A DNA stretch of 64,000 nucleotides from Escherichia phage CL1, in sequence record OK040806. One strand, written 5' to 3'. The number at the start of each line of letters is the position of its first letter. Position 1 is the first letter of the stretch. A program made the position numbers and the translations under genes. Shown one piece after another: positions 1 to 63,161 of this stretch. The notes below the pieces were generated by a model. The model saw nothing but the letters and a program-made list of their open reading frames with translations. It searched no databases and had not been told where the DNA came from.

Positions 1-4651
<4,651 letters not shown>

Positions 4652-4653
4652 TA

Positions 4654-5802
4654 ATGGCAGTAGGTGAAATTCAAATCAGTGCCTTGCCTCAAGCAGCCTT
4701 ACCAATCGACCTTAGTGATATCTTCCATCTTAAGCAGGGTATCGAGGATAAGAGGTGTACTCTTGAGCAATTACTTGCTCCGCACTCAAGCTTAAAGAAT
4801 AACCCTCATGGTGTTACTAAAACACAAATTGGTTTAGATAACGTTATTAATGCTCTTCAGTTAGTTGCTGCAAATAACTTATCAGATATTGTTAATGTAG
4901 CTGAGGCAAGAGCAAATCTACAGATTATGTCTTCAGAAGAGGTCAATAGCCTTATTCAACAGCATATTAATGACAAGAGCAACCCACACAATACAACTAA
5001 GGCACAGGTTGGTTTAAGTAATGTCCAGAACTGGACAACATCTAACCTTTATAATGAAGATGCAGATAAGTATGCTACAGCAAGAGCAGTAAATAACTTG
5101 TACAAGGCTGTTCAGGCTTCTTATCCAGTAGGTACTATCCATCTCTCTATGAATCCTGCAAACCCCTCTACATATTTAATTTGTGGAGGTACTTGGGAGT
5201 TAGTCTCAAAAGGGAGAGCACTTGTAGGTTATGATAGTGATTCTAGGCCAGTTGGTTCAACGTTTGGTTCACAGACTACTGCACTGACGGTTAATAACAT
5301 CCCTGCACATACCCACTCAGTGTATGTCACTGGTGGTGGTCACACTCATGGTGCAACAGCCTCTATCAGTGCTTTTGATTATGGTACTAAAGGGACTACA
5401 ACGTTTGACTATGGAACCAAGACCGTATCTACTTACGACTATGGCAACAGAACAACAAGTGCTGCTGGCTTAACACAAACAACATTCATTAATCGTGGCT
5501 ATGCTGATGGTGGCTGGAGAGGTTTATCGGTTGAGGGGGCAAGCTATGACCCAAGAGCTACGTTGACAACAGCTAACAACCACACTCACTCTGTAGCAAT
5601 TGGTGCGCATAATCATACGGTTGGCATTGGTGCTCACAGCCATACTGTTGCAATTGGTTCCCACAACCACTCAGCAACAGTAACAGTAACCGGAGCAGGT
5701 GAGCATTCTCACTCTGGCACAACTGGTCCAACTGGTTCTGGTCAAGCATTTAGTGTTGAACAGCCATCCTTCGTACTGTATGTATGGCAGAGAACAGCTT
5801 AA
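4654..5802 (+). CDS. tail fibre protein with C-terminal His-x-His repeat domain
   Basis: 382 aa, Gly/Thr/Ser-rich; C-terminal HTHSV, GAHNHTV, GAHSHTV, GSHNHSA motifs and ...GSGQAFSV...YVWQRTA end shared with the next ORF. Confidence 0.55.
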   Translation: MAVGEIQISALPQAALPIDLSDIFHLKQGIEDKRCTLEQLLAPHSSLKNNPHGVTKTQIGLDNVINALQLVAANNLSDIVNVAEARANLQIMSSEEVNSLIQQHINDKSNPHNTTKAQVGLSNVQNWTTSNLYNEDADKYATARAVNNLYKAVQASYPVGTIHLSMNPANPSTYLICGGTWELVSKGRALVGYDSDSRPVGSTFGSQTTALTVNNIPAHTHSVYVTGGGHTHGATASISAFDYGTKGTTTFDYGTKTVSTYDYGNRTTSAAGLTQTTFINRGYADGGWRGLSVEGASYDPRATLTTANNHTHSVAIGAHNHTVGIGAHSHTVAIGSHNHSATVTVTGAGEHSHSGTTGPTGSGQAFSVEQPSFVLYVWQRTA

Positions 5803-5848: not shown

Positions 5849-8200
5849 ATGGCAGATTACAAGTTGAGTGAATTAAACTCAATCGACACAATCCGTTCAG
5901 ACGACCTTCTTCATGTCAGGGTTAAAAAGAGACCTGAAATGCTAGGTGATGAAGACCGTCGAATGACCTATCAAGACTTCTTAGCATCTTTTAAACTAGA
6001 AAGATTTGTCCAGATTGCTGGCAGTACTATGACGGGTGACTTAGGAATTGTCAAGTTACTTTATGGTGGTAAGGTAGTATTTGACCCTACAGGTTCTTCT
6101 GGGATTACTATGGGGGATGTTTTAAAGACTTTTAAAATCAATGCAAACGGTCTTAAACTCACTATTGCAGATGCTTCAAGGTCTGCAACTGTTTATCATA
6201 CTCTTAATAAGCCAAGTCCTAATGAACTTGGGATGAGAACTAATGAAGAGAATGATGCAAGATATGCAAGACTTGCTGTAAATAACACCTTTAGGGCCAC
6301 TCAAAATATTCTATCTGATAATGAAACTATTATCGTTAAGAATGTTACACAAGGGATGCCGCTGTATATTCGCGGTCAAGATGCAGATGGCTCTAACAGG
6401 TGGTATCTAGGCAATGATAACAAAGGTACAGACAATCTTGTTTTAAAAAATGTTAAATCTGGTGCATATGTAGCTATTTTGGATAGCTTAATCACTGTGA
6501 ACAAATCTATCCAGATTACTGGTCAAGTTCAGCCTTCTGACTTCTCTAACTTAGATGCTAGATACTTTACTCAGACAGCAGCTAATCAGAGGTTTGCGCA
6601 GCTAGTTGGTAATAACACCTTCAGAGGTATTAATAATTTTGTAGGTGAGTTCAATATTACCAGAGATAATGCTGTGCTGGTCATTAAGAATGCCACTGCT
6701 GCAACTGGGTTGTACTTGCTTGGTCAGAAAGCTGATGGGACAAACAAGTTCTACTTAGGGACTGATGACTCTGATTCTGTAGTCAACCTACATAACTACA
6801 CCACGAGTACAACTATCTCTTTGTCAAATGTGATTACCACTACTAAGACTGTGAAAATCACTGGTCAAGTTCAGCCTTCTGATTGGGCTAACATTGACTC
6901 TAGATACATCCCAGCAGGAACTTTGAGTAACCTTGCTAAGCTAAGTGATGCAAATACTTTCAGGTCTGCACAGATTATTAATCGGGATGGCTCATTGTTA
7001 CAGCTAAAGAATACTACACAAGATGGAGAGCTATACTTTGCTGGTCATAATGCTGATGGTGTTAGAAGGTGGTACATTGGGAATGGGGAATCATCCAACC
7101 CAGAAAGACTTATTATCCATAACGGCAGAACTGCAACTACGATTTATATGCAAGATGATTTCTTGTTGAACAAAACTGTTAGAATCATTGGTCAAGTTCA
7201 ACCTTCTGATTGGACTAACTTAGATGCTAGATACTACGTTCAATCTGCAACAGATGCGAAGTACATCTGGTCAGCAGTCAGGGAGACAGTAAGAGCGGAG
7301 GATGGTGGTGTAGCTTGGAATAAACCTTCCGGAATCTATCTTGAGACAGTGCAGGGTGGTGGGGCAAACCGTTTAGTCTCACACATGTTCGTTAATACGG
7401 GAGCATCAACACCTGCTGCACAATTGATGTTTGGTTATAGAAATGGTGGAATGTGGTACAGAACAGCCAGAGATAGGGCTGGTTTTGAGGAGGATTGGTC
7501 TAAGGTTTACACAGAGGCTCAGAAACCAACCCCTTCAGAGATTGGTGCATACACTAAAACTGAAACTGACCAGAAGATTGCACAGGCAGTAAGTGACTCT
7601 ACAGACCTTAATAAAATCTATCCAGTGGGTATTGTGACATGGTTTAACAGTAATGTTGACCCTAATACAGCACTGCCTGGTCTAACTTGGACGTACCTCA
7701 ATAATGGTGTTGGTAGAACTATCAGAATTGCAGCAGCAAACGGTTCAGATGTTGCTACAACTGGTGGTTCAGACTCTGTGACGTTAGCTGTTGGGAACTT
7801 GCCTTCACACACTCACAGATTTTCTGCTACCACTTCATCTTTTGACTACGGAACAAAAAACACTAACACAACTGGTGCTCACACTCACTCTGTAAGTGGC
7901 TCTACTTCATCTGCTGGTAACCACAACCACTCCATTTCGTGGATTGGTCAGAACTCACAGCACTATTCTGGTGGTGGTGGTGCATACGTTGGTTCAGGGC
8001 CGGGTTACACCGATGCTAACGGTGCTCACACCCACACAATCTCTGGTACTGCTGCTTCTGCTGGTAACCATGCTCACTCAGTTGGTATTGGTGCTCACAG
8101 CCATACAGTAAGTGGTAACACTGGGGGTACAGGTTCTGGTTCAGCGTTTAGTGTTACTAACCAGTTCTACAAGTTAATGGCTTGGGTAAGAACTGCTTAA
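5849..8200 (+). CDS. tail fibre protein (internal tandem repeats, C-terminal HxH domain)
   Basis: 783 aa; three ~120-aa internal repeats each containing I[TI]GQVQPSD[FW]xN[LI]D[AS]RY; C-terminus HTHSV...GAHSHTV...GSGSAFSV...WVRTA parallels the upstream fibre. Confidence 0.6.
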
Positions 8201-8279: not shown

Positions 8280-8477
8280 ATGCCTACAATCCTAGCAATT
8301 CTTCTAAAAAATCTAGGTAGCTTCTTCTGGAAACTCGTTTTATCCCTTCTAAGTGAATACATGATTGAGAAAGTGTTCTTTAGGCTTGCAAGATATCTTG
8401 CAAGTAAGACAGACACACCTATTGATGATGAGTTCGTAGATAACTTAGAAAAAGCTTTTAAGGGGGAGAATAAATGA
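8280..8477 (+). CDS. hypothetical small hydrophobic protein
   Basis: 65 aa; coupled to next ORF (ATGA overlap). Confidence 0.3.
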   Translation: MPTILAILLKNLGSFFWKLVLSLLSEYMIEKVFFRLARYLASKTDTPIDDEFVDNLEKAFKGENK

Positions 8478-8845
8478 AGTGGCTAGAGGAAGCTTTTAAA
8501 AATAATATTGGTGCAATTGTAGTTGGTATTTTTAGTGTTATTGGTATGTATACCACCATGCAAGTCTCGGATGGTAAGCAAGAAGTATCTATCACAACAA
8601 AGTTACAGCAGCTAGATAATTATTCCAAAAGTAATTATTCAGCTATTCGTGATTTACAGTCTGATATGAGGCTGCTTCAGCTAGGGATGGAGAACCAGAA
8701 AGTCCAGTTAGAGAATGTTAAGGGAGAGAACGCAAAACTTACTAAGACTCTTGACAAATTCTCTGATAGTGTGAACAATCTGGCTCAATCAGTATCAGCC
8801 CTCCAAGCTATTACTGAAAAGAACACAAAGAATACTGAAAAGTAA
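8474..8845 (+). CDS. hypothetical membrane-anchored coiled-coil protein
   Basis: 123 aa; N-terminal hydrophobic helix (IGAIVVGIFSVIGMY) then heptad-like region; last gene before terminator. Confidence 0.35.
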   Translation: MKWLEEAFKNNIGAIVVGIFSVIGMYTTMQVSDGKQEVSITTKLQQLDNYSKSNYSAIRDLQSDMRLLQLGMENQKVQLENVKGENAKLTKTLDKFSDSVNNLAQSVSALQAITEKNTKNTEK

Positions 8846-14221: not shown

Positions 14222-15325
14222 TTATTCATAATCTCGTATAACTAGCCCAACAGGGAACTGTAAAGAACCCTTACGAGTCATCTTCTGGAACTGAACCGTT
14301 AAAGGTTTCCCAATAAACTCTTCAGGATGCTCAGCAAGATACTGTTTCTTCTCATGAGTAGTCTTCCATGAAACATCTACAAAGACGTTAGGAAGAGTCT
14401 CTACAACGAACTTACCATGACCCCGCTTATCGGTCTTGATACCAGTCACTTTAAACTCTTCAGTGTGCATCTTCTTGTGCTTAATCAAGAAGTATGAACG
14501 GTGACAACACTCATAGAAGGAGTCTTCAGAGATTGAACGGTACATTGCACCTTCAAACTTAGCTTCAACCCACTTATCATGAGCTTCATCAAACTCTTCC
14601 CAAGAATTTACACGACGAGACTTAACAGGAACAACTTTACAGCCGTCTCTGAAGTCATTCAATGGTGAAGTCTCAATAATATCTCTACGCTCAGGCCACG
14701 TCTTAGTACTGTCACAGATATCGTACCAGTAAAACTTGAGCAAGTGTCTGTCAGGATTGTCTTCATTTTTAATCATGGAGACGATATCTTCTAAGTCCCA
14801 CCCATGAGCATAAATCTCTCCATCAAATTCATCAACATCTTTGTGGAGCCTTAACATTGCCATAATGTCAGGTATTAGTTCAGTAGGGATTTTATAAACA
14901 GTATTCTCACGAGAGTATGCTGTAAATACGCTACCAATGCTTAAGTGTCTTGAAATTCTACAACGTACACCATCAAGCTTCGGTTGAGCATCAGCAGGGA
15001 ATTTCAAATACTTTGCATGACTAACCTTTGCAGCATCATGAGCAAGCTGTACACCTACCTTCTCAGTGTTCTGTGCAGACTCTTTTGTGTAAGCATAACC
15101 TTTGCGGTCAACTTGCTTTTTATACTTAGCAGCAACTTCAAAGAGAGCTTGCTGTTCAGCGTTACGCTCATTCTTTTTACCGATGTTTTTAGGTTCTGCT
15201 GTATACTCTTCAAACATCATCTTGCCATTTTCTTTGCCATACGTGGTAACAACTTTGTCACCTACAGCGACACATGACCAGACGTTAAAAGAGCCATCTT
15301 TATTTTGTTTGTACAGTGTTGTCAT
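14222..15325 (-). CDS. ATP-dependent DNA ligase
   Basis: 367 aa with adenylation motif I (PKLDGVR) in a T7-ligase-like context. Confidence 0.75.
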   Translation of the reverse strand: MTTLYKQNKDGSFNVWSCVAVGDKVVTTYGKENGKMMFEEYTAEPKNIGKKNERNAEQQALFEVAAKYKKQVDRKGYAYTKESAQNTEKVGVQLAHDAAKVSHAKYLKFPADAQPKLDGVRCRISRHLSIGSVFTAYSRENTVYKIPTELIPDIMAMLRLHKDVDEFDGEIYAHGWDLEDIVSMIKNEDNPDRHLLKFYWYDICDSTKTWPERRDIIETSPLNDFRDGCKVVPVKSRRVNSWEEFDEAHDKWVEAKFEGAMYRSISEDSFYECCHRSYFLIKHKKMHTEEFKVTGIKTDKRGHGKFVVETLPNVFVDVSWKTTHEKKQYLAEHPEEFIGKPLTVQFQKMTRKGSLQFPVGLVIRDYE

Positions 15326-15326
15326 T

Positions 15327-15857
15327 TTATTCCTCTAGCATATGTTTTCTAACAGGAATCTTCATACCATTCTCTGCAAGTGCTTCACCAAAAACTGTGA
15401 AGTACTTTTCAGGCCAGTAGATAGGTTCTCTATCATAGAGAGCGATGAAGTCACCCTCTTCAGTCTTATAAGCAATCCTTCCAGATATCTTAAACTGGTA
15501 CAGCTTTAAAGAACCATCATGGTATTTTACACAGGCTTTAAACCGTTCCTTGAAAGCATACTTAGCAAACCTTTCATAAAGGTCACTTAGTAGTACTTCA
15601 ACATTATCTACTTGTGGGATGCTTAAGTTATCACAAATATTTTTGTATTCTTTATCAAAATCTGTACAGTTAAATGGTGTAGCTCCAGTTTCATACCAAA
15701 ACTGTAGTATAGCTCGCTTTTTGGGTTGCTTATCTGAATACTCAGCCTTTTTTATCTTGTACCAAGCTCTACGAAGATTGTTGTCATCCATTCTCAAACA
15801 TCTGCATCTGAAGTTATGTTCTGCAACATATTCATCAATACTTTTGACATATTTCAT
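15327..15857 (-). CDS. hypothetical protein
   Basis: start moved to MKYVKS (GAGGAG SD; 4-nt overlap with upstream stop). Confidence 0.35.
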   Translation of the reverse strand: MKYVKSIDEYVAEHNFRCRCLRMDDNNLRRAWYKIKKAEYSDKQPKKRAILQFWYETGATPFNCTDFDKEYKNICDNLSIPQVDNVEVLLSDLYERFAKYAFKERFKACVKYHDGSLKLYQFKISGRIAYKTEEGDFIALYDREPIYWPEKYFTVFGEALAENGMKIPVRKHMLEE

Positions 15858-16051
15858 GATTTCTCCTCTGTATGATACCAAATGCCACAAACGTTACAGG
15901 CATAGAGATTTAAGTCACTCTTGTCAGGTTTATGAAAACAGTTTGACCCGCAACGACACCGGAATAGCTTACCATCAACACGAAGAATGAATGTTTCAAG
16001 CTCACCATCTTCTGTAAGAACTGCGTTCTTAAATTTATCTTCTGCAGTCAT
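15854..16051 (-). CDS. hypothetical zinc-finger protein
   Basis: 65 aa; CRCGSNC...CNVCG Cys cluster. Confidence 0.35.
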   Translation of the reverse strand: MTAEDKFKNAVLTEDGELETFILRVDGKLFRCRCGSNCFHKPDKSDLNLYACNVCGIWYHTEEKS

Positions 16052-16254
16052 TTTCTCTTACCACCAATCTCTACGTCGATAACCTGAACATCACCAGCAA
16101 CATCAAACTTATGAATGATACTTTCCACAGTGTAAGTCCAACCCTCGATTCGAACCAACTCACCTTCTCGTGGGACGATTGGGTTACGTTGAGCTACGGT
16201 TGTAGTGGAGTGAACAACATCATAACAGTAGATATAGTTTACTAGGACTTCCAT
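16048..16254 (-). CDS. hypothetical protein (start uncertain)
   Basis: ORF open to 16353 but overlaps the lipoprotein gene; ATG at 16254 avoids overlap. Confidence 0.3.
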   Translation of the reverse strand: MEVLVNYIYCYDVVHSTTTVAQRNPIVPREGELVRIEGWTYTVESIIHKFDVAGDVQVIDVEIGGKRK

Positions 16255-16264
16255 CTTGAAAACC

Positions 16265-16501
16265 TCACTCAATAACAGTAGTGTGTGATTGACCATTTTT
16301 GCCATAGCTATAAGATGTTGTTGTTTGAGAGTTTGGACATCTGACAACAACAATATCTCTGCTTATGGCATCACCATGTAACTTATAGACTTTGCAATCT
16401 TGCATCTCTGGTGGGAGGCTATAAGAAGCATTTTTATCCTCATAAGAAGGGTTGCAGCCAGCTAGAAAAATAACACCAAGTGCAATTACTGCTTTCCACA
16501 T
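16265..16501 (-). CDS. small lipoprotein
   Basis: 78 aa; signal peptide with canonical lipobox (VIFLAGC), short mature domain. Confidence 0.45.
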   Translation of the reverse strand: MWKAVIALGVIFLAGCNPSYEDKNASYSLPPEMQDCKVYKLHGDAISRDIVVVRCPNSQTTTSYSYGKNGQSHTTVIE

Positions 16502-16689
16502 AACACATCTCCTGTTTTATTGTTCACGATGTTCTACTTCTCTGTATGTACGCCGGTAGTTTATGATGAGTTGTGCTAATTCGTTGCTTTTAACATCTGA
16601 ACGTAGCAGTTGCCAATCAAAACCTTTACCGACTCTTCCATATAAGCTAAAGAATTTTACTTTGCGTTTCATTTTGGTGTCCCCAATAC

Positions 16690-16902
16690 TCAGAGGTCAA
16701 TACTAATACGTTCACCCTTAAGGACTCCTGTGCGGTCTCTTGCAATCTTACCATCAACAATAAGAATATGCGCAGACCTTAAAGTGTCCTGATTAAAACC
16801 TTTTACGAACTTACTAGGCATCACCACAATAAGCATCTCTTGAATCAACTCTGGAGTGTAGCAGTTGTCGTGAAGTTGCTGAATAACGTCTGCAAGTGTC
16901 AT
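16690..16902 (-). CDS. hypothetical protein
   Basis: ORF-track start is TTG; first ATG (MTLADV) has GGAGA SD and a 4-nt overlap with upstream gene. Confidence 0.3.
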   Translation of the reverse strand: MTLADVIQQLHDNCYTPELIQEMLIVVMPSKFVKGFNQDTLRSAHILIVDGKIARDRTGVLKGERISIDL

Positions 16903-17108
16903 TTTTGATGTCTCCAATATTCAATATCAATAAGCTCTTGTGCAATGCTTTTCAGATTACCTTTCAAGAAAACCTTCTCAGAACCTGAAAGAGATGAATT
17001 GTCAATTAACCTGTTCATCCTCTCAAACAACTTCTGCTTACGATTTTTGATAGTTTCCTTTGAAGCACCTTTCATCATCGCTGCATGGGTTCTCCCACGG
17101 TGGCTCAT
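16899..17108 (-). CDS. hypothetical basic protein
   Basis: 69-aa Lys/Arg-rich ORF. Confidence 0.3.
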   Translation of the reverse strand: MSHRGRTHAAMMKGASKETIKNRKQKLFERMNRLIDNSSLSGSEKVFLKGNLKSIAQELIDIEYWRHQK

Positions 17109-17169
17109 AAGCCCTCCTATATAAGATATTGTATAAGGTACTCTTCCATGAGCACCTTGTCAATACTAA

Positions 17170-19866
17170 TTAGTGTACTTCAAGCCAGCTTTTACCAACC
17201 TTACCAGTACCTGTTACAAGTGTTTCTTTCTTAAGACCTAAGTTCTTAGAAGCTTGTCCATAATACCAGTCAGTAACTGCTTTCACTTCTGCCGTCATAC
17301 TCTCTGGACATTCCCAACTTGTTTCATCGTGATATGCGCAGAGCAAACGAGCACCAATAGCTGGTTGACGACCATTCAACTTCATCAACCCTTCGTCAAT
17401 CATACGACGACAAGCAAGGTTAATTGCCTCATTTTGAATCTGGGCCTCTGAACCCATCAGATAGTTCAACAGTTTGTGTGGAGATTTACACCACAACCAA
17501 GCTCCAGCAACCTTTACAAATCCCCCTTTAGAGATTGCAGCGGTCTTACCAAACACCTCTTCAAGTGCCTTTTTAGTTGCTTTGTAGTCAGCTTCCAAGT
17601 CATCTAGCAGCTTCTTAATTTTAGGCAAACGAATAAAGTAAGTCTGCTTAGTCAGTGCACCTTCCTGAGTAGTTGCAGCTTTAATTGTCTTAGCAAACTT
17701 CTCATCACCTGCACCGAACAGCAGTGCATAGATACCATTCTTAGCTTTCTTACGACCCTTGCTAATCTCATGAAGAAGGTTCTCATCCTGAGTAGCTCGA
17801 CAAGTTAAGATATCCTGCTCATCATTCAAGCTAAAGTAAATGCTGTTCAATGTGTGTGCATCAGTCCCTGAATAGACAACGTACAGGTCATTCTCAGAGT
17901 CATAGCGAAGGTACTTATCAATCTCTGGGTTGAGGTACTCATCAAAGTGTTTGCAGTAATAGCGCCCATCTTCTTGACGAATAAACTCAATTTCTTCTTT
18001 GCCTTGCGTTACCGCTTTGGTGAAGTCTTTGTCGCCCATAAAGTTACAAAGGAGAACTAGCTGGGCTGAGTTCATGTCGACAGAGACAACGTTAGTACCT
18101 TCTTCACAAATCCACACTGCCCTCATTGGTTCCCCATAGACAGCAGCACCAGACGGTACGTTTACAATACCATATTGTGTCATACGTCCAGTTGAAGTAC
18201 CAAATACCATTGCACCAGCACTAAGGCGACCATCAGGACGAATCTGGTTCAACCAGCCTTTTTCATCATCCTTTGAGTTCTCAATAGTTCTGCGTCGGTG
18301 CATCAAAGTGTAGTACTTAGCAATCTTCTGTCCAAGCTCACCTTCAATCGTATCGTAAGATGATTCAGTAAGTTTTGGTGAAGTACGGATTAAGCAAGGT
18401 TCAAGCAAGTCTGTGTATTTCTTCACAGACCAGTTATGCTCAATGTACTGGACACCTTCGTGTTCAACATAACTCAACCCACACCGTTCAACCATCTCCT
18501 GCCACTTAGGATGCTTTGTAATCATCTTTTTGTTGTCTTTGAAACGACAAACTTTGACAGGACGACCATCTGAGTCTTTCTTGTAGTTCCAGTCATCTGG
18601 AATCCAACCAACTGACTTCAAGTAGTCTTTAACAACTGCCACCTGAGTCATGCGAGAAACTTCGAACTCAATTGGTGTATATGGTGCATCAATTAACCCT
18701 GTGTAGCGACTTGACTCCAGTTCAAAGTGGTTAACAACATGGCTGTTATAGTACTTCACAGTCTTGACTGTTTTTACTGGCTTCCAGTCTTTGCATTTCT
18801 TACCAATCTTTGCATTCAACTCATTGCAAATTGCACGAGCATCCTTCATTGCTACAAAACCTTCCTTGTACTCTTCACCAGTTATGGAGTTGGTTGGTGT
18901 ATAGCAATTTCTCTTTTCAATGTTAAAAATCTTTGTAGTTGGCTTACCAAATGGCTTGATTTCATATGTCTGCATCTCACCGTTACGTACCTGCTGACGG
19001 TACTTCGTCTTAGGATACTTGGTAATCCTCTTCAGTCCATCTGCATGACCAAATGCTTCAACATACTCATTCCAAGCTTTTGCAAACTCTTCTCCAGTGA
19101 CTTTACCTTTGGTCTTAATAGTTGGAGGAAGGTGTGGTTCAACTTCCGAAGCAAGCTCATTAGTCAACTTGTCAAGCTCCTTTACATGGAACTCCATAAG
19201 CTCTTTATCAGCTTTCCAACCATTGATAGCTTGTTGACTCATCCAGAAAGATGTTTCTTTAGCTCGCATATAGGTTTCATAAGTGTCTATACCACACTTC
19301 TTTAACTTCAGGTATTCATTATCCAGTGCACGTTTAGTTTTGGCGTTAATACGGATATCTTCCACAACACGAGTGAAGATTTCTGCATTCCACACACCCC
19401 AATGTTCAATCTCTGGTTTACGTACACCAACACGAGCACCCCATGCAGCCAAGCCATGAGCACCTTTATAGCCTTTTGGAGTTGGTCTATCCATCCACTG
19501 AACACGAGACTGGATAAGAGAGTCCTGAAAGAAATTACTCCACGGTTTACACTTTGGATTATCAAAGTTCCACAAATCAGGTGCGATGTGATTGAAAACC
19601 CACCAGTCATATCCCAGACCATTATGGATGCAAAGTCGTTTTGCCTTTAACGCAAACTCAACACCTTCACGCAAGCCACCCTTAATGTACTTGGTATACT
19701 TGTGACCGAGGATAGGCTCATCTGTAAAGACCCATACAGGTGGCTCTTCATTGTCAGATTTATAGTCTGCGAAAGCCATTACGTGCACTTTAGTGAACTC
19801 AAGGAGTAAACCATCAGTTTCTGTATCACCAACTAAGTGTAAGTTTTTAAAATCTACGTTTTCCAT
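17170..19866 (-). CDS. DNA polymerase, family A, with N-terminal 3'-5' exonuclease domain
   Basis: Exo I-like GDTETDGL near N-terminus; motif A-like DMNSAQL, motif B-like K..K.NG.YALLFGAG, motif C YHDE; start at ATG with GAGGGAG SD. Confidence 0.85.
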   Translation of the reverse strand: MENVDFKNLHLVGDTETDGLLLEFTKVHVMAFADYKSDNEEPPVWVFTDEPILGHKYTKYIKGGLREGVEFALKAKRLCIHNGLGYDWWVFNHIAPDLWNFDNPKCKPWSNFFQDSLIQSRVQWMDRPTPKGYKGAHGLAAWGARVGVRKPEIEHWGVWNAEIFTRVVEDIRINAKTKRALDNEYLKLKKCGIDTYETYMRAKETSFWMSQQAINGWKADKELMEFHVKELDKLTNELASEVEPHLPPTIKTKGKVTGEEFAKAWNEYVEAFGHADGLKRITKYPKTKYRQQVRNGEMQTYEIKPFGKPTTKIFNIEKRNCYTPTNSITGEEYKEGFVAMKDARAICNELNAKIGKKCKDWKPVKTVKTVKYYNSHVVNHFELESSRYTGLIDAPYTPIEFEVSRMTQVAVVKDYLKSVGWIPDDWNYKKDSDGRPVKVCRFKDNKKMITKHPKWQEMVERCGLSYVEHEGVQYIEHNWSVKKYTDLLEPCLIRTSPKLTESSYDTIEGELGQKIAKYYTLMHRRRTIENSKDDEKGWLNQIRPDGRLSAGAMVFGTSTGRMTQYGIVNVPSGAAVYGEPMRAVWICEEGTNVVSVDMNSAQLVLLCNFMGDKDFTKAVTQGKEEIEFIRQEDGRYYCKHFDEYLNPEIDKYLRYDSENDLYVVYSGTDAHTLNSIYFSLNDEQDILTCRATQDENLLHEISKGRKKAKNGIYALLFGAGDEKFAKTIKAATTQEGALTKQTYFIRLPKIKKLLDDLEADYKATKKALEEVFGKTAAISKGGFVKVAGAWLWCKSPHKLLNYLMGSEAQIQNEAINLACRRMIDEGLMKLNGRQPAIGARLLCAYHDETSWECPESMTAEVKAVTDWYYGQASKNLGLKKETLVTGTGKVGKSWLEVH

Positions 19867-20123
19867 TTTTACTCCCTCTAAAATCATTAACCTCATACAT
19901 TACTGCAAAAAATTATAAAAAGCAAGTTGACAATGTACTTGACAAGGTGTTAATCTTTGCGAAGTGGGTTTTTACTTAAAAGGTTACTTAACAGTTTAAC
20001 TATACAGATACTTTAAAACTCTTAAAAGATTATTTAATAGCTTTTAAAAAGCTTTAAAGTATAACGTATAGAATACGTTAAGATAAAAGATTAAAACTTA
20101 ATAGTTACTTAAAAGAGGCTTAC

Positions 20124-47051: not shown

Positions 47052-47399
47052 ATGACATTTAAAGAGTTCTGTCAAGCTACTTTCATAATTGTTTTCTTAG
47101 TTGGGGCAGGTGTCTGGGGAGGATACTCTTACAGAGACTACCAAGTTGCTGAAGCTGAGCTAAATAATGAGAAACTAATAAGTGTTGCCAAAGATGCTTA
47201 TCAGGAAGGTTTAGCCACACTCAGCACCAATTACAAAAATGATTTGAAAGATGTGCTTGCTAAGAATAAGCATACAAAAGAGGTACTAACATATGAAAAA
47301 ACTAAGCCAGAGTTTTATAATGTTTGTGTTACTGATAACTATGTCAGGGTGTTCAACGAACAAAGTGAACAGTACATTCAAAAACTCCCAAGTAAGTGA
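47052..47399 (+). CDS. i-spanin-like protein (N-terminal TM, periplasmic coiled coil)
   Basis: 115 aa; TM helix FIIVFLVGAGVWGGY then helical region; its 3' end overlaps a lipoprotein ORF in another frame. Confidence 0.3.
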   Translation: MTFKEFCQATFIIVFLVGAGVWGGYSYRDYQVAEAELNNEKLISVAKDAYQEGLATLSTNYKNDLKDVLAKNKHTKEVLTYEKTKPEFYNVCVTDNYVRVFNEQSEQYIQKLPSK

Positions 47400-47562
47400 G
47401 AGTGATAAGTACACACAAGAAGAATCAAGATTCACCGTCAAAGGTAATACTGGTAGTGATGTGGCAGCAGCCCTTGAGTTTTATCGTGATGGTTTTTATC
47501 AGTGCACAATAAAAGCTAATAACCTTATTGACATGATTTTATTAGGGAATAAACAGCAATGA
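47293..47562 (+). CDS. o-spanin-like outer-membrane lipoprotein
   Basis: 89 aa; signal peptide with lipobox-like ITMSGC; starts inside preceding ORF in +1 frame (Rz/Rz1-like overlap); not Pro-rich. Confidence 0.3.
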   Translation: MKKLSQSFIMFVLLITMSGCSTNKVNSTFKNSQVSESDKYTQEESRFTVKGNTGSDVAAALEFYRDGFYQCTIKANNLIDMILLGNKQQ

Positions 47563-62696: not shown

Positions 62697-63161
62697 TTAC
62701 TTTGGATATACACTGTCAAGATAAATGTCAGCTTCCATTCTTCGTCTATTTTTAAGACCGTTTGAAGTGACCTTCTGACCTTTGACTGTGACCTTGTTCC
62801 ACCACTGCATAGCTTCTGCACAACCCACCTTATTACCAGCATTGTGACGCTTGATAAATGTAGAATCCTGCATAGCTGTGATACCGATGTTGTATGTTTC
62901 ACTTACAAGTGCATCGAACTCATTCTGAGAAGTTGGAGCCTTGATAGCTTTATTCACTGCTGCAACAAACTTCTCAACATCTGCGAGAAGATACTGTTCG
63001 GCTTGTTCAGCAGTAATTTTCATACCCATCTTAACAGGTTTTCCGTCAATACGGATTGTACCATACCCGATTGTTGGGATTCCGGCAGAGTCTTTATAAG
63101 CCTCTAACTTCAGACCTTCAAAGAACTTAATGGCTTCTAAACCTTTTCTTGAGAGTTGCAT
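62697..63161 (-). CDS. endolysin (T4-lysozyme-like muramidase)
   Basis: 154 aa; N-terminal FFEGLKLEAYKDSAGIPTIGYG parallels the T4 lysozyme catalytic Glu/Asp region. Confidence 0.8.
   Translation of the reverse strand: MQLSRKGLEAIKFFEGLKLEAYKDSAGIPTIGYGTIRIDGKPVKMGMKITAEQAEQYLLADVEKFVAAVNKAIKAPTSQNEFDALVSETYNIGITAMQDSTFIKRHNAGNKVGCAEAMQWWNKVTVKGQKVTSNGLKNRRRMEADIYLDSVYPK

Follow-up and report, generated by a model that had tools for sequence, protein, structure and literature searches.

Known exclusion lipoproteins of phages are disulfide-bonded proteins of about 6 kDa that bind FhuA or LptDE from the periplasmic side (PMC12685063), and docking on LptDE is described for the two small lipoproteins Rtp45 and LptM (PMC12685063). 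Llp of T5, Cor of T1/phi80/N15 and Rtp45 of phage Rtp are each tied to one receptor, whereas the family considered here, phrog_902, is spread far more widely across unrelated phage lineages and hosts. Of the T4 exclusion proteins, Spackle (gp61.3) is helical and soluble in the periplasm, and Imm crosses the inner membrane several times; the phrog_902 lipoprotein differs from both in being a lipid-anchored domain with a predicted beta fold. We analysed the gene of one such lipoprotein in a window of 64,000 nucleotides from Escherichia phage CL1 (the whole stretch presented here). The window belongs to a Felixounavirus (Ounavirinae), and its 3-kb stretch 15000-18000 shares 99.8% identity with Escherichia phage C600M2.

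The gene is an ORF of 78 aa at 16265..16501 on the minus strand (MWKAVIALGVIFLAGCNPSYEDKNASYSLPPEMQDCKVYKLHGDAISRDIVVVRCPNSQTTTSYSYGKNGQSHTTVIE), whose orthologues are C600M2_42 (100% match by tblastn) and bas63_0042 of phage Bas63. Its ATG (16499-16501) is preceded at a distance of 7 nt by a Shine-Dalgarno sequence AGGAG (16509-16513, minus strand). The precursor begins with MWKAVIALGVIFLAGC|NPSY..., and its signal peptide, residues 1-15 (16457..16501, minus strand), consists of the n-region MWK, in which Lys3 gives the positive charge, and a hydrophobic h-region of 12 residues (AVIALGVIFLAG). The lipobox L13-A14-G15-C16 lies at 16454..16465 of the minus strand, and Cys16 is invariant in an alignment of 40 sequences. 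The signal is of the Sec-type lipoprotein kind, and Cys16 would be diacylglyceryl-modified, the precursor cleaved by signal peptidase II and the new N-terminus then acylated, so that Cys16 would be the acylated first residue of the mature lipoprotein; the residue at +2 is Asn. The mature protein (residues 16-78, about 6.9 kDa) is encoded at 16268..16456 on the minus strand. A lipoprotein precursor of bacterial type is expected to have a positive n-region, a hydrophobic h-region and, within about 35 residues, a lipobox of the form [LVI][ASTVI][GAS]C, all of which this ORF has. When the 1,300 start-specific ORFs with a length of 40 aa or more, taken from the six frames of the window, were put through a strict filter for such signals, only 2 passed, viz. 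the ORF at 16265-16501 and the o-spanin at 47293-47562. Therefore the lipoprotein signal is not a chance match. It may be noted that the Pfam lipid-attachment model LPAM_1 matches 7 of 40 phrog_902 members. The preliminary description had called this ORF a small lipoprotein with a canonical lipobox, which is borne out by the ribosome-binding site, the operon packing, the LAGC sequence, the filter and a dN/dS value of 0.054 (see below), and we consider it very probable that the ORF encodes a functional periplasmic lipoprotein of phrog_902.

The gene lies in a block of small, tightly packed genes between the DNA polymerase gene upstream (17170-19896) and the DNA ligase gene downstream (14222-15325), both on the same minus strand, and a terminator-like site at 12733-12718 of this strand ends the block. 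Its description as embedded among replication genes is thus correct. Since the gene is transcribed with the block from polymerase to ligase, the protein should be made before lysis. A promoter scan scored no better than shuffled sequence. The neighbours are small proteins of cytoplasmic type, and no adjoining gene encodes a transmembrane segment. The short tail fibre gene is found at 4654-5799 and the long tail fibre gene at 5849-8197, the latter 8 kb away on the opposite strand. A putative holin gene lies at 8474-8842, an overlapping pair of i-spanin and o-spanin genes at 47052-47399 and 47293-47562 (30 kb away), and the endolysin gene at 62700-63161. The statement that the lipoprotein gene is far from both the fibre and the lysis genes is therefore roughly right.

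Two observations on the genes downstream may be recorded here. At the junction with the next gene (16252..16272, minus strand), the TGA stop codon of the lipoprotein gene (16265-16267) lies inside GAGTGAGG, which forms the ribosome-binding site of the downstream gene. The ORF of the latter runs over 16048-16353 (minus strand, 101 aa), and C600M2 and Bas63 annotate it as a protein of 85 aa with a start at 16305, which gives a 41-nt overlap with the lipoprotein gene. The phrog_4427 profile (68 positions) begins its alignment at residue 34 of this ORF, which corresponds to an ATG at 16254; this start is served by a separate GAGG site, which overlaps the TGA of the lipoprotein gene. The shorter start looks more likely. 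Further on, between the ligase gene and the gp40 homologue, there is an ORF of 187 aa (15327-15890, minus strand, probable ATG at 15857), which C600M2 leaves unannotated and which fills a segment of about 505 bp (about 15347-15850) missing from Bas63. Most relatives cover just about 82% of the 3-kb query spanning this segment, and the ORF has no match to PHROG or Pfam. The segment may be a mobile insertion; other relatives have homing endonucleases or a split ligase gene at this locus.

The protein matches the phrog_902 profile over its full length (residues 1-76, E=3.7e-17) and is thus a full-length member of a family that is catalogued without a described function. An exhaustive search of 1.84 billion representative proteins with a profile built from the family gave at least 1,153 clusters (50% identity) at E<=1e-3, of which 606 reached E<=1e-10, with lengths of 71-137 aa for nearly all of the best 150 clusters listed. 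The identical protein occurs on 47 contigs and is labelled 'hypothetical' on all of them. By tblastn with the window protein we found 585 phage records, and use of a consensus query raises the range to 585-609; Llp, in comparison, was found in 34 phage records, all of them T5-like coliphages or salmonella phages. About 200 Felixounavirus genomes carry the lipoprotein at an identity of 60% or more (tblastn). Copies of 30-56% identity are present in Aeromonas phage vB_AceP_PAc (124 kb), in jumbo phages of Eneladusvirus and Asteriusvirus, in Acinetobacter phages of Saclayvirus, in a T4-like Pseudomonas phage, in Vibrio phage RYC and in about 290 T5-like (Demerecviridae) Vibrio phages. With the consensus query, Vequintavirinae-like phages of 141-150 kb and Aeromonas jumbo phages, among others, are also recovered. 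The carriers, which infect Gram-negative bacteria, include Straboviridae as well, and the hosts span Vibrio to Acinetobacter. For the reverse question of bacterial copies, the core motif was derived from a narrower alignment, the first one being too diverse for a pattern scan. Among 185,579 bacterial and archaeal species (one genome per species) the motif was found at a single locus, in Hylemonella gracilis, and we therefore take the family to be essentially restricted to virulent phages. This sole bacterial copy lies at 5983-6261 of a contig of H. gracilis ATCC 19624, in an apparent island where its neighbours are an XRE-type regulator, a secreted protein of 488 aa and one more putative lipoprotein.

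Sequence and profile searches of Pfam, NCBIfam, PADLOC and the PDB with the protein or the family gave no informative match beyond LPAM_1. Every homologue in the big protein database carries a precomputed label PF16225.11, presumably DUF4884, while the current Pfam copy matched PF16225 in none of the 40 phrog_902 members scanned; this label is weak, as the match is not reproduced. An all-against-all blastp comparison of the neighbours at 22 distant loci revealed no conserved partner gene. Because no neighbour is conserved across phage lineages, the lipoprotein appears to act as a single-gene unit, and phrog_902 moves between phage lineages as a single gene. The literature searched on lipoproteins of Felixounavirus and Felix O1, surveys of phage lipoboxes and Felixounavirus transcriptomes contained nothing on this gene. 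Some other small lipoproteins were seen on the way. The T5-like Vibrio phage 70E35.5a encodes a second small predicted lipoprotein of 58 aa (MKYIIIMMGMLLAGC..., 74520-74696) in its tRNA region, near which a GOLLD RNA is annotated in the same record (75246-75666). The early region of T1 has an ORF with a lipoprotein-like signal (1991-2269, plus strand; MRILICMMAAVAMAILVVSGC...), which is separate from the Cor gene and is unrelated to phrog_902 beyond the signal.

Within the family the lipid-attachment cysteine is kept in all members. A classical lipobox is present in 179 of the 188 members fetched, and in the remaining 9 a hydrophobic stretch is followed by x-x-G/S-C. Two further cysteines are found in the mature part: Cys36, in the motif LPxxLxDC (codon at 16394..16396, minus strand), and Cys55, in the motif VVRCPNSxT (codon at 16337..16339, minus strand). 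Both columns, together with the proline that follows Cys55 (C55-P56), are invariant over the 40 aligned sequences, in which the conserved stretches read Y-x-LP-x-x-L-x-DC-K-x-Y and VVRCPNSxTxT..Y..GK. Of 181 members, 119 have a spacing of 20 residues from the lipid cysteine to the second cysteine, and 161 have 17-19 residues between the second and the third (C36-C55). Two independent AlphaFold2 runs (with 40 and 150 sequences) gave the same five-strand all-beta topology at modest to moderate confidence (pLDDT 63 and 67), with strands at 37-42 and 49-54, so that Cys36 and Cys55 flank the beta2-beta3 hairpin. From this we infer a Cys36-Cys55 disulfide that closes the hairpin. As modelled, the mature part (62 residues) would be a compact beta domain stapled by this disulfide, and the fixed 20-residue spacing from the lipid cysteine would hold it near the membrane. 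Fold searches with the models returned no informative match and no solved relative. The invariant lipid cysteine, the two cysteines at fixed spacing and the shared all-beta topology are consistent with a periplasmic binder. Many metagenomic members have C-terminal extensions, among them a conserved 'ALxKLTxEExKALGL' helix, 'V-I/V-D-G-V-x-Y' repeats (one or two) and proline-rich linkers.

The residue at +2 varies across members (E, D, S, N, T, A, G, K). According to the Lol rule of E. coli, Asn at +2 directs a lipoprotein to the outer membrane and Asp at +2 leads to retention in the inner membrane. On this basis we infer that the Felixounavirus lipoprotein, having Asn, is sorted to the outer membrane. 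The homologues of enterobacterial jumbo phages (Yersinia, E. coli, Erwinia) have Asp at this position (CDG.., CDA..), so that close homologues may reside on different membranes.

On comparing 22 Felixounavirus-type genes, the median dN/dS of the mature region was 0.054, which reveals strong purifying selection. The orthologue of Bas63 (JohannRWettstein), gp42, has 92% identity with the window protein; in the mature part the two agree at 60 of 62 positions (97%). For this phage a PhageMaP preprint gives the fitness of barcode-insertion knock-outs in a pooled library after overnight lysis at an MOI of 0.1 (doi 10.1101/2024.10.10.617714). Gene 42 is absent from the text of the preprint and present in its supplementary tables, where the scores of three replicates each are -0.59, -0.79 and -0.78 in S17, -1.02, -1.13 and -1.35 in MG1655, -1.55, -0.92 and -0.83 in BW25113, and -1.42, -1.11 and -0.83 in DH10B (doi 10.1101/2024.10.10.617714). 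The authors label scores below 0 as 'essential'; their structural genes mostly score about -2 to -4 (about -0.2 to -1.7 in S17) and the DNA polymerase -1.3 to -4, and the spanins (g89, g90), rIIA, rIIB and genes 44-46 are neutral or positive, with g89/g90 mostly positive (doi 10.1101/2024.10.10.617714). As insertions in the Bas63 orthologue score negative in four hosts, the lipoprotein gene contributes to fitness in laboratory hosts. In the PhageMaP tables genes 41 and 43 of Bas63 are negative too, and gene 42 is usually more negative and less noisy. Since these two genes are negative and essential ligase genes lie downstream, the effect of gene 42 could be partly polar on the latter. It may also be noted that genes 41-43 are negative whereas genes 44-46, upstream on the same strand, are neutral or positive, a contrast which the PhageMaP paper does not discuss; it could be due to a promoter inside the block, ahead of gene 43, or to genuine effects of the small genes on fitness. 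At an MOI of 0.1 with overnight pooled lysis, a phage should gain from exclusion and from the protection of its progeny.

Taken together, export, anchoring, timing, single-gene spread, restriction to virulent phages, receptor breadth, variation of the membrane and fitness cost are best fitted by a receptor-independent periplasmic factor for exclusion or envelope protection. This reading, drawn from the format, location and distribution of the protein, is tentative, and we place it somewhat short of an even chance. The lipoprotein would bind a conserved component in the periplasm or crossing it, and not the phage's own surface receptor. A candidate target may be the penetration or ejection apparatus of a second phage or its wall-degrading activity, or else a conserved envelope machine. 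Such binding would shield the infected cell from secondary infection or envelope damage, and the yield of progeny would be preserved. The receptor is unlikely as the target because the long fibre has diverged (82% identical between the window phage and Bas63) and the lipoprotein has not (92%, and 97% in its mature part), and because the carriers infect hosts as far apart as Vibrio and Acinetobacter. The occurrence of Asp at +2 in the enterobacterial jumbo-phage homologues and of Asn in Felixounavirus implies a target that can be reached from either membrane. Superinfection exclusion, which the preliminary description had raised as a role of such lipoproteins, is in this broader, receptor-independent sense leading but unproven. 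Several points speak against it: the structural models are of modest confidence and match nothing informative, the Bas63 effect could be partly polar, one conserved inhibitor is hard to square with the diverse tail-tip enzymes of the myoviruses and siphoviruses that carry the gene, and a fitness defect in all K-12 hosts fits the neutralisation of a host envelope factor equally well. We also put forward, as a proposition that we rate as somewhat doubtful, that the whole family, common to many virulent lineages, is a generic receptor-independent envelope effector, in which one disulfide-stapled beta domain of 6-7 kDa, tethered to either membrane, would neutralise a single universal periplasmic or trans-envelope target. 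Candidates for such a target would be the machines for LPS or OMP insertion, peptidoglycan or its hydrolases, or a penetration step common to tail tips.

The alternative that survives best is a takeover of the host envelope, in which the lipoprotein would inhibit or redirect a conserved host protein of the periplasm or envelope and thereby aid the productive cycle itself, whether or not other phages are present. Its target might be a protease, an enzyme that hydrolyses peptidoglycan, a machine of outer-membrane biogenesis such as LptDE or BAM, or a defence or stress sensor seated in the envelope. Phages of many Gammaproteobacteria share the core motif, which points to a cellular target that is conserved, and the restriction to virulent phages, the single-gene organisation and the deleterious effect of the Bas63 knock-out in 4 of 4 K-12 hosts, with no host specificity, agree with it. 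That small lipoproteins can dock on LptDE is shown by Rtp45 and LptM (PMC12685063). On the other side, the searches of Pfam, NCBIfam, PADLOC and the PDB revealed no homology to a host protein or a known inhibitor, PADLOC in particular giving no match, and the presence of Asn or Asp at +2 among the homologues is hard to reconcile with a target confined to one of the two membranes. We regard such a takeover as rather unlikely. Periplasmic endonuclease I was considered as a target and discarded, the Bas63 defect being unchanged in DH10B, which we take to be endA1.

Lytic conversion of the Llp/Cor/Rtp45 type, the analogy with T5 Llp to which the preliminary description pointed, would have the lipoprotein dock in the periplasm and close allosterically an outer-membrane protein that the phage needs, so that the progeny are spared binding to debris. 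The format is similar to that of Llp and Rtp45, i.e. a mature protein of about 6-7 kDa, probably disulfide-bonded, predicted at the outer membrane and made before lysis (PMC12685063), and a fitness cost after overnight lysis in a debris-rich culture fits the protection of progeny. An hhalign comparison with Llp gave a probability of 84.7%, which rests mostly on the signal peptide and a short stretch of about 14 residues (P..I.C..Y.M), and homology with Llp was rejected. Likewise, the match of the family HMM to T1 Cor (E=3e-4) spans only the signal peptide and lipobox, and Cor was also set aside. By PDB sequence and profile searches, hhalign and the family HMM, the mature domain of the window lipoprotein has no similarity to Llp, Cor, the solved Rtp45 or Spackle. 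Against a mask of this kind there also stand the fibre genes, which are 8 kb off on the opposite strand, and the lack of co-variation with the fibres, whose hypervariability in Felixounavirus is reported (PMC12609058). Infection by Bas63 is reported to depend on LPS, and a protein receptor is not known (PMC12609058). Some 600 records of phages with varied, unrelated receptors and hosts contain a family member as against 34 for Llp, and some enterobacterial homologues are predicted at the inner membrane. A receptor mask of the Llp/Cor/Rtp45 type thus fails on homology, on linkage to or co-variation with receptor-binding genes and on a receptor-restricted distribution; the analogy with Llp is unsupported, and we judge lytic conversion in this sense improbable. 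In a T5-like Vibrio phage that carries a family member, a separate lipoprotein gene beside the one for receptor binding was looked for; the strict filter detected none near the tail genes, a result that speaks neither way.

An accessory role in lysis, as a second o-spanin-like part or a part for lysis timing alongside the holin, endolysin and spanins, is a further option, of which the preliminary description had named the spanin part with doubt. A small lipoprotein predicted at the outer membrane resembles the Rz1-type o-spanins, and the coiled-coil or proline-rich C-terminal extensions of some members could span the periplasm. This is countered by the complete overlapping i-/o-spanin pair 30 kb away, by the adjoining genes, none of which encodes a partner with a transmembrane segment, by a location in the replication block and not in a late or lysis cluster, and by the opposite knock-out phenotypes in Bas63, where spanin insertions are neutral and those in g42 deleterious. 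A spanin role is rejected on these grounds, and we give any accessory part in lysis very little chance. A chance reading frame or a decaying, functionless gene, to which nothing points beyond the small size and the 'hypothetical protein' labels everywhere, is practically ruled out by the Shine-Dalgarno site, the conserved lipobox and cysteine pattern, the low dN/dS, the 1,153 family clusters and the Bas63 phenotype.

The ORF is an ordinary one for a phage genome, and the size of its family, its strict conservation and the knock-out phenotype make its role a directly testable question. The fitness contribution, which is seen in the only genome-wide knock-out data available, has gone unremarked in the literature. 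Identification of the target would expose a strategy by which virulent phages at large seal or remodel the Gram-negative envelope while they infect, or else a conserved vulnerability of this envelope, and a function would be assigned to a gene common in phages that are therapeutic candidates (Felixounavirus, Vequintavirinae-like and jumbo phages). If the protein is an exclusion factor of broad specificity, phages administered together in a cocktail could interfere with each other, which bears on cocktail design. A generic envelope effector, if true, would be a new mechanism of exclusion or takeover distinct from those of Llp/Cor/Rtp45, Imm and Spackle.

With regard to known systems, the o-spanins of Rz1 type share with the window lipoprotein the short length, the predicted outer-membrane anchor and the periplasmic cysteines, and differ from it in having an i-spanin partner, in their transcription block and in the phenotype of the Bas63 knock-outs. 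Llp, Cor and Rtp45 are closer in format: a mature part of about 6-7 kDa with cysteines, a predicted or known place at the outer membrane, a gene of a virulent phage or of the lytic cycle that is expressed before lysis, action as a single protein in the periplasm and a loss that is costly in debris-rich culture. The phrog_902 lipoprotein differs from them in that it neither adjoins nor co-varies with receptor-binding genes and in that some of its homologues bear the inner-membrane retention signal (Asp at +2). T4 Spackle and Imm, to which Pfam, PHROG annotation and PDB searches gave no match, resemble it as exported proteins of virulent myoviruses made before lysis, with a block after adsorption that corresponds to the receptor-independent role proposed here. 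By analogy, the logic that we favour for the window lipoprotein would be closer to that of Spackle than to that of Llp. The lipoprotein thus resembles the early periplasmic lipoproteins of phages, and it differs from those characterised so far in sequence, linkage, distribution and probably target.
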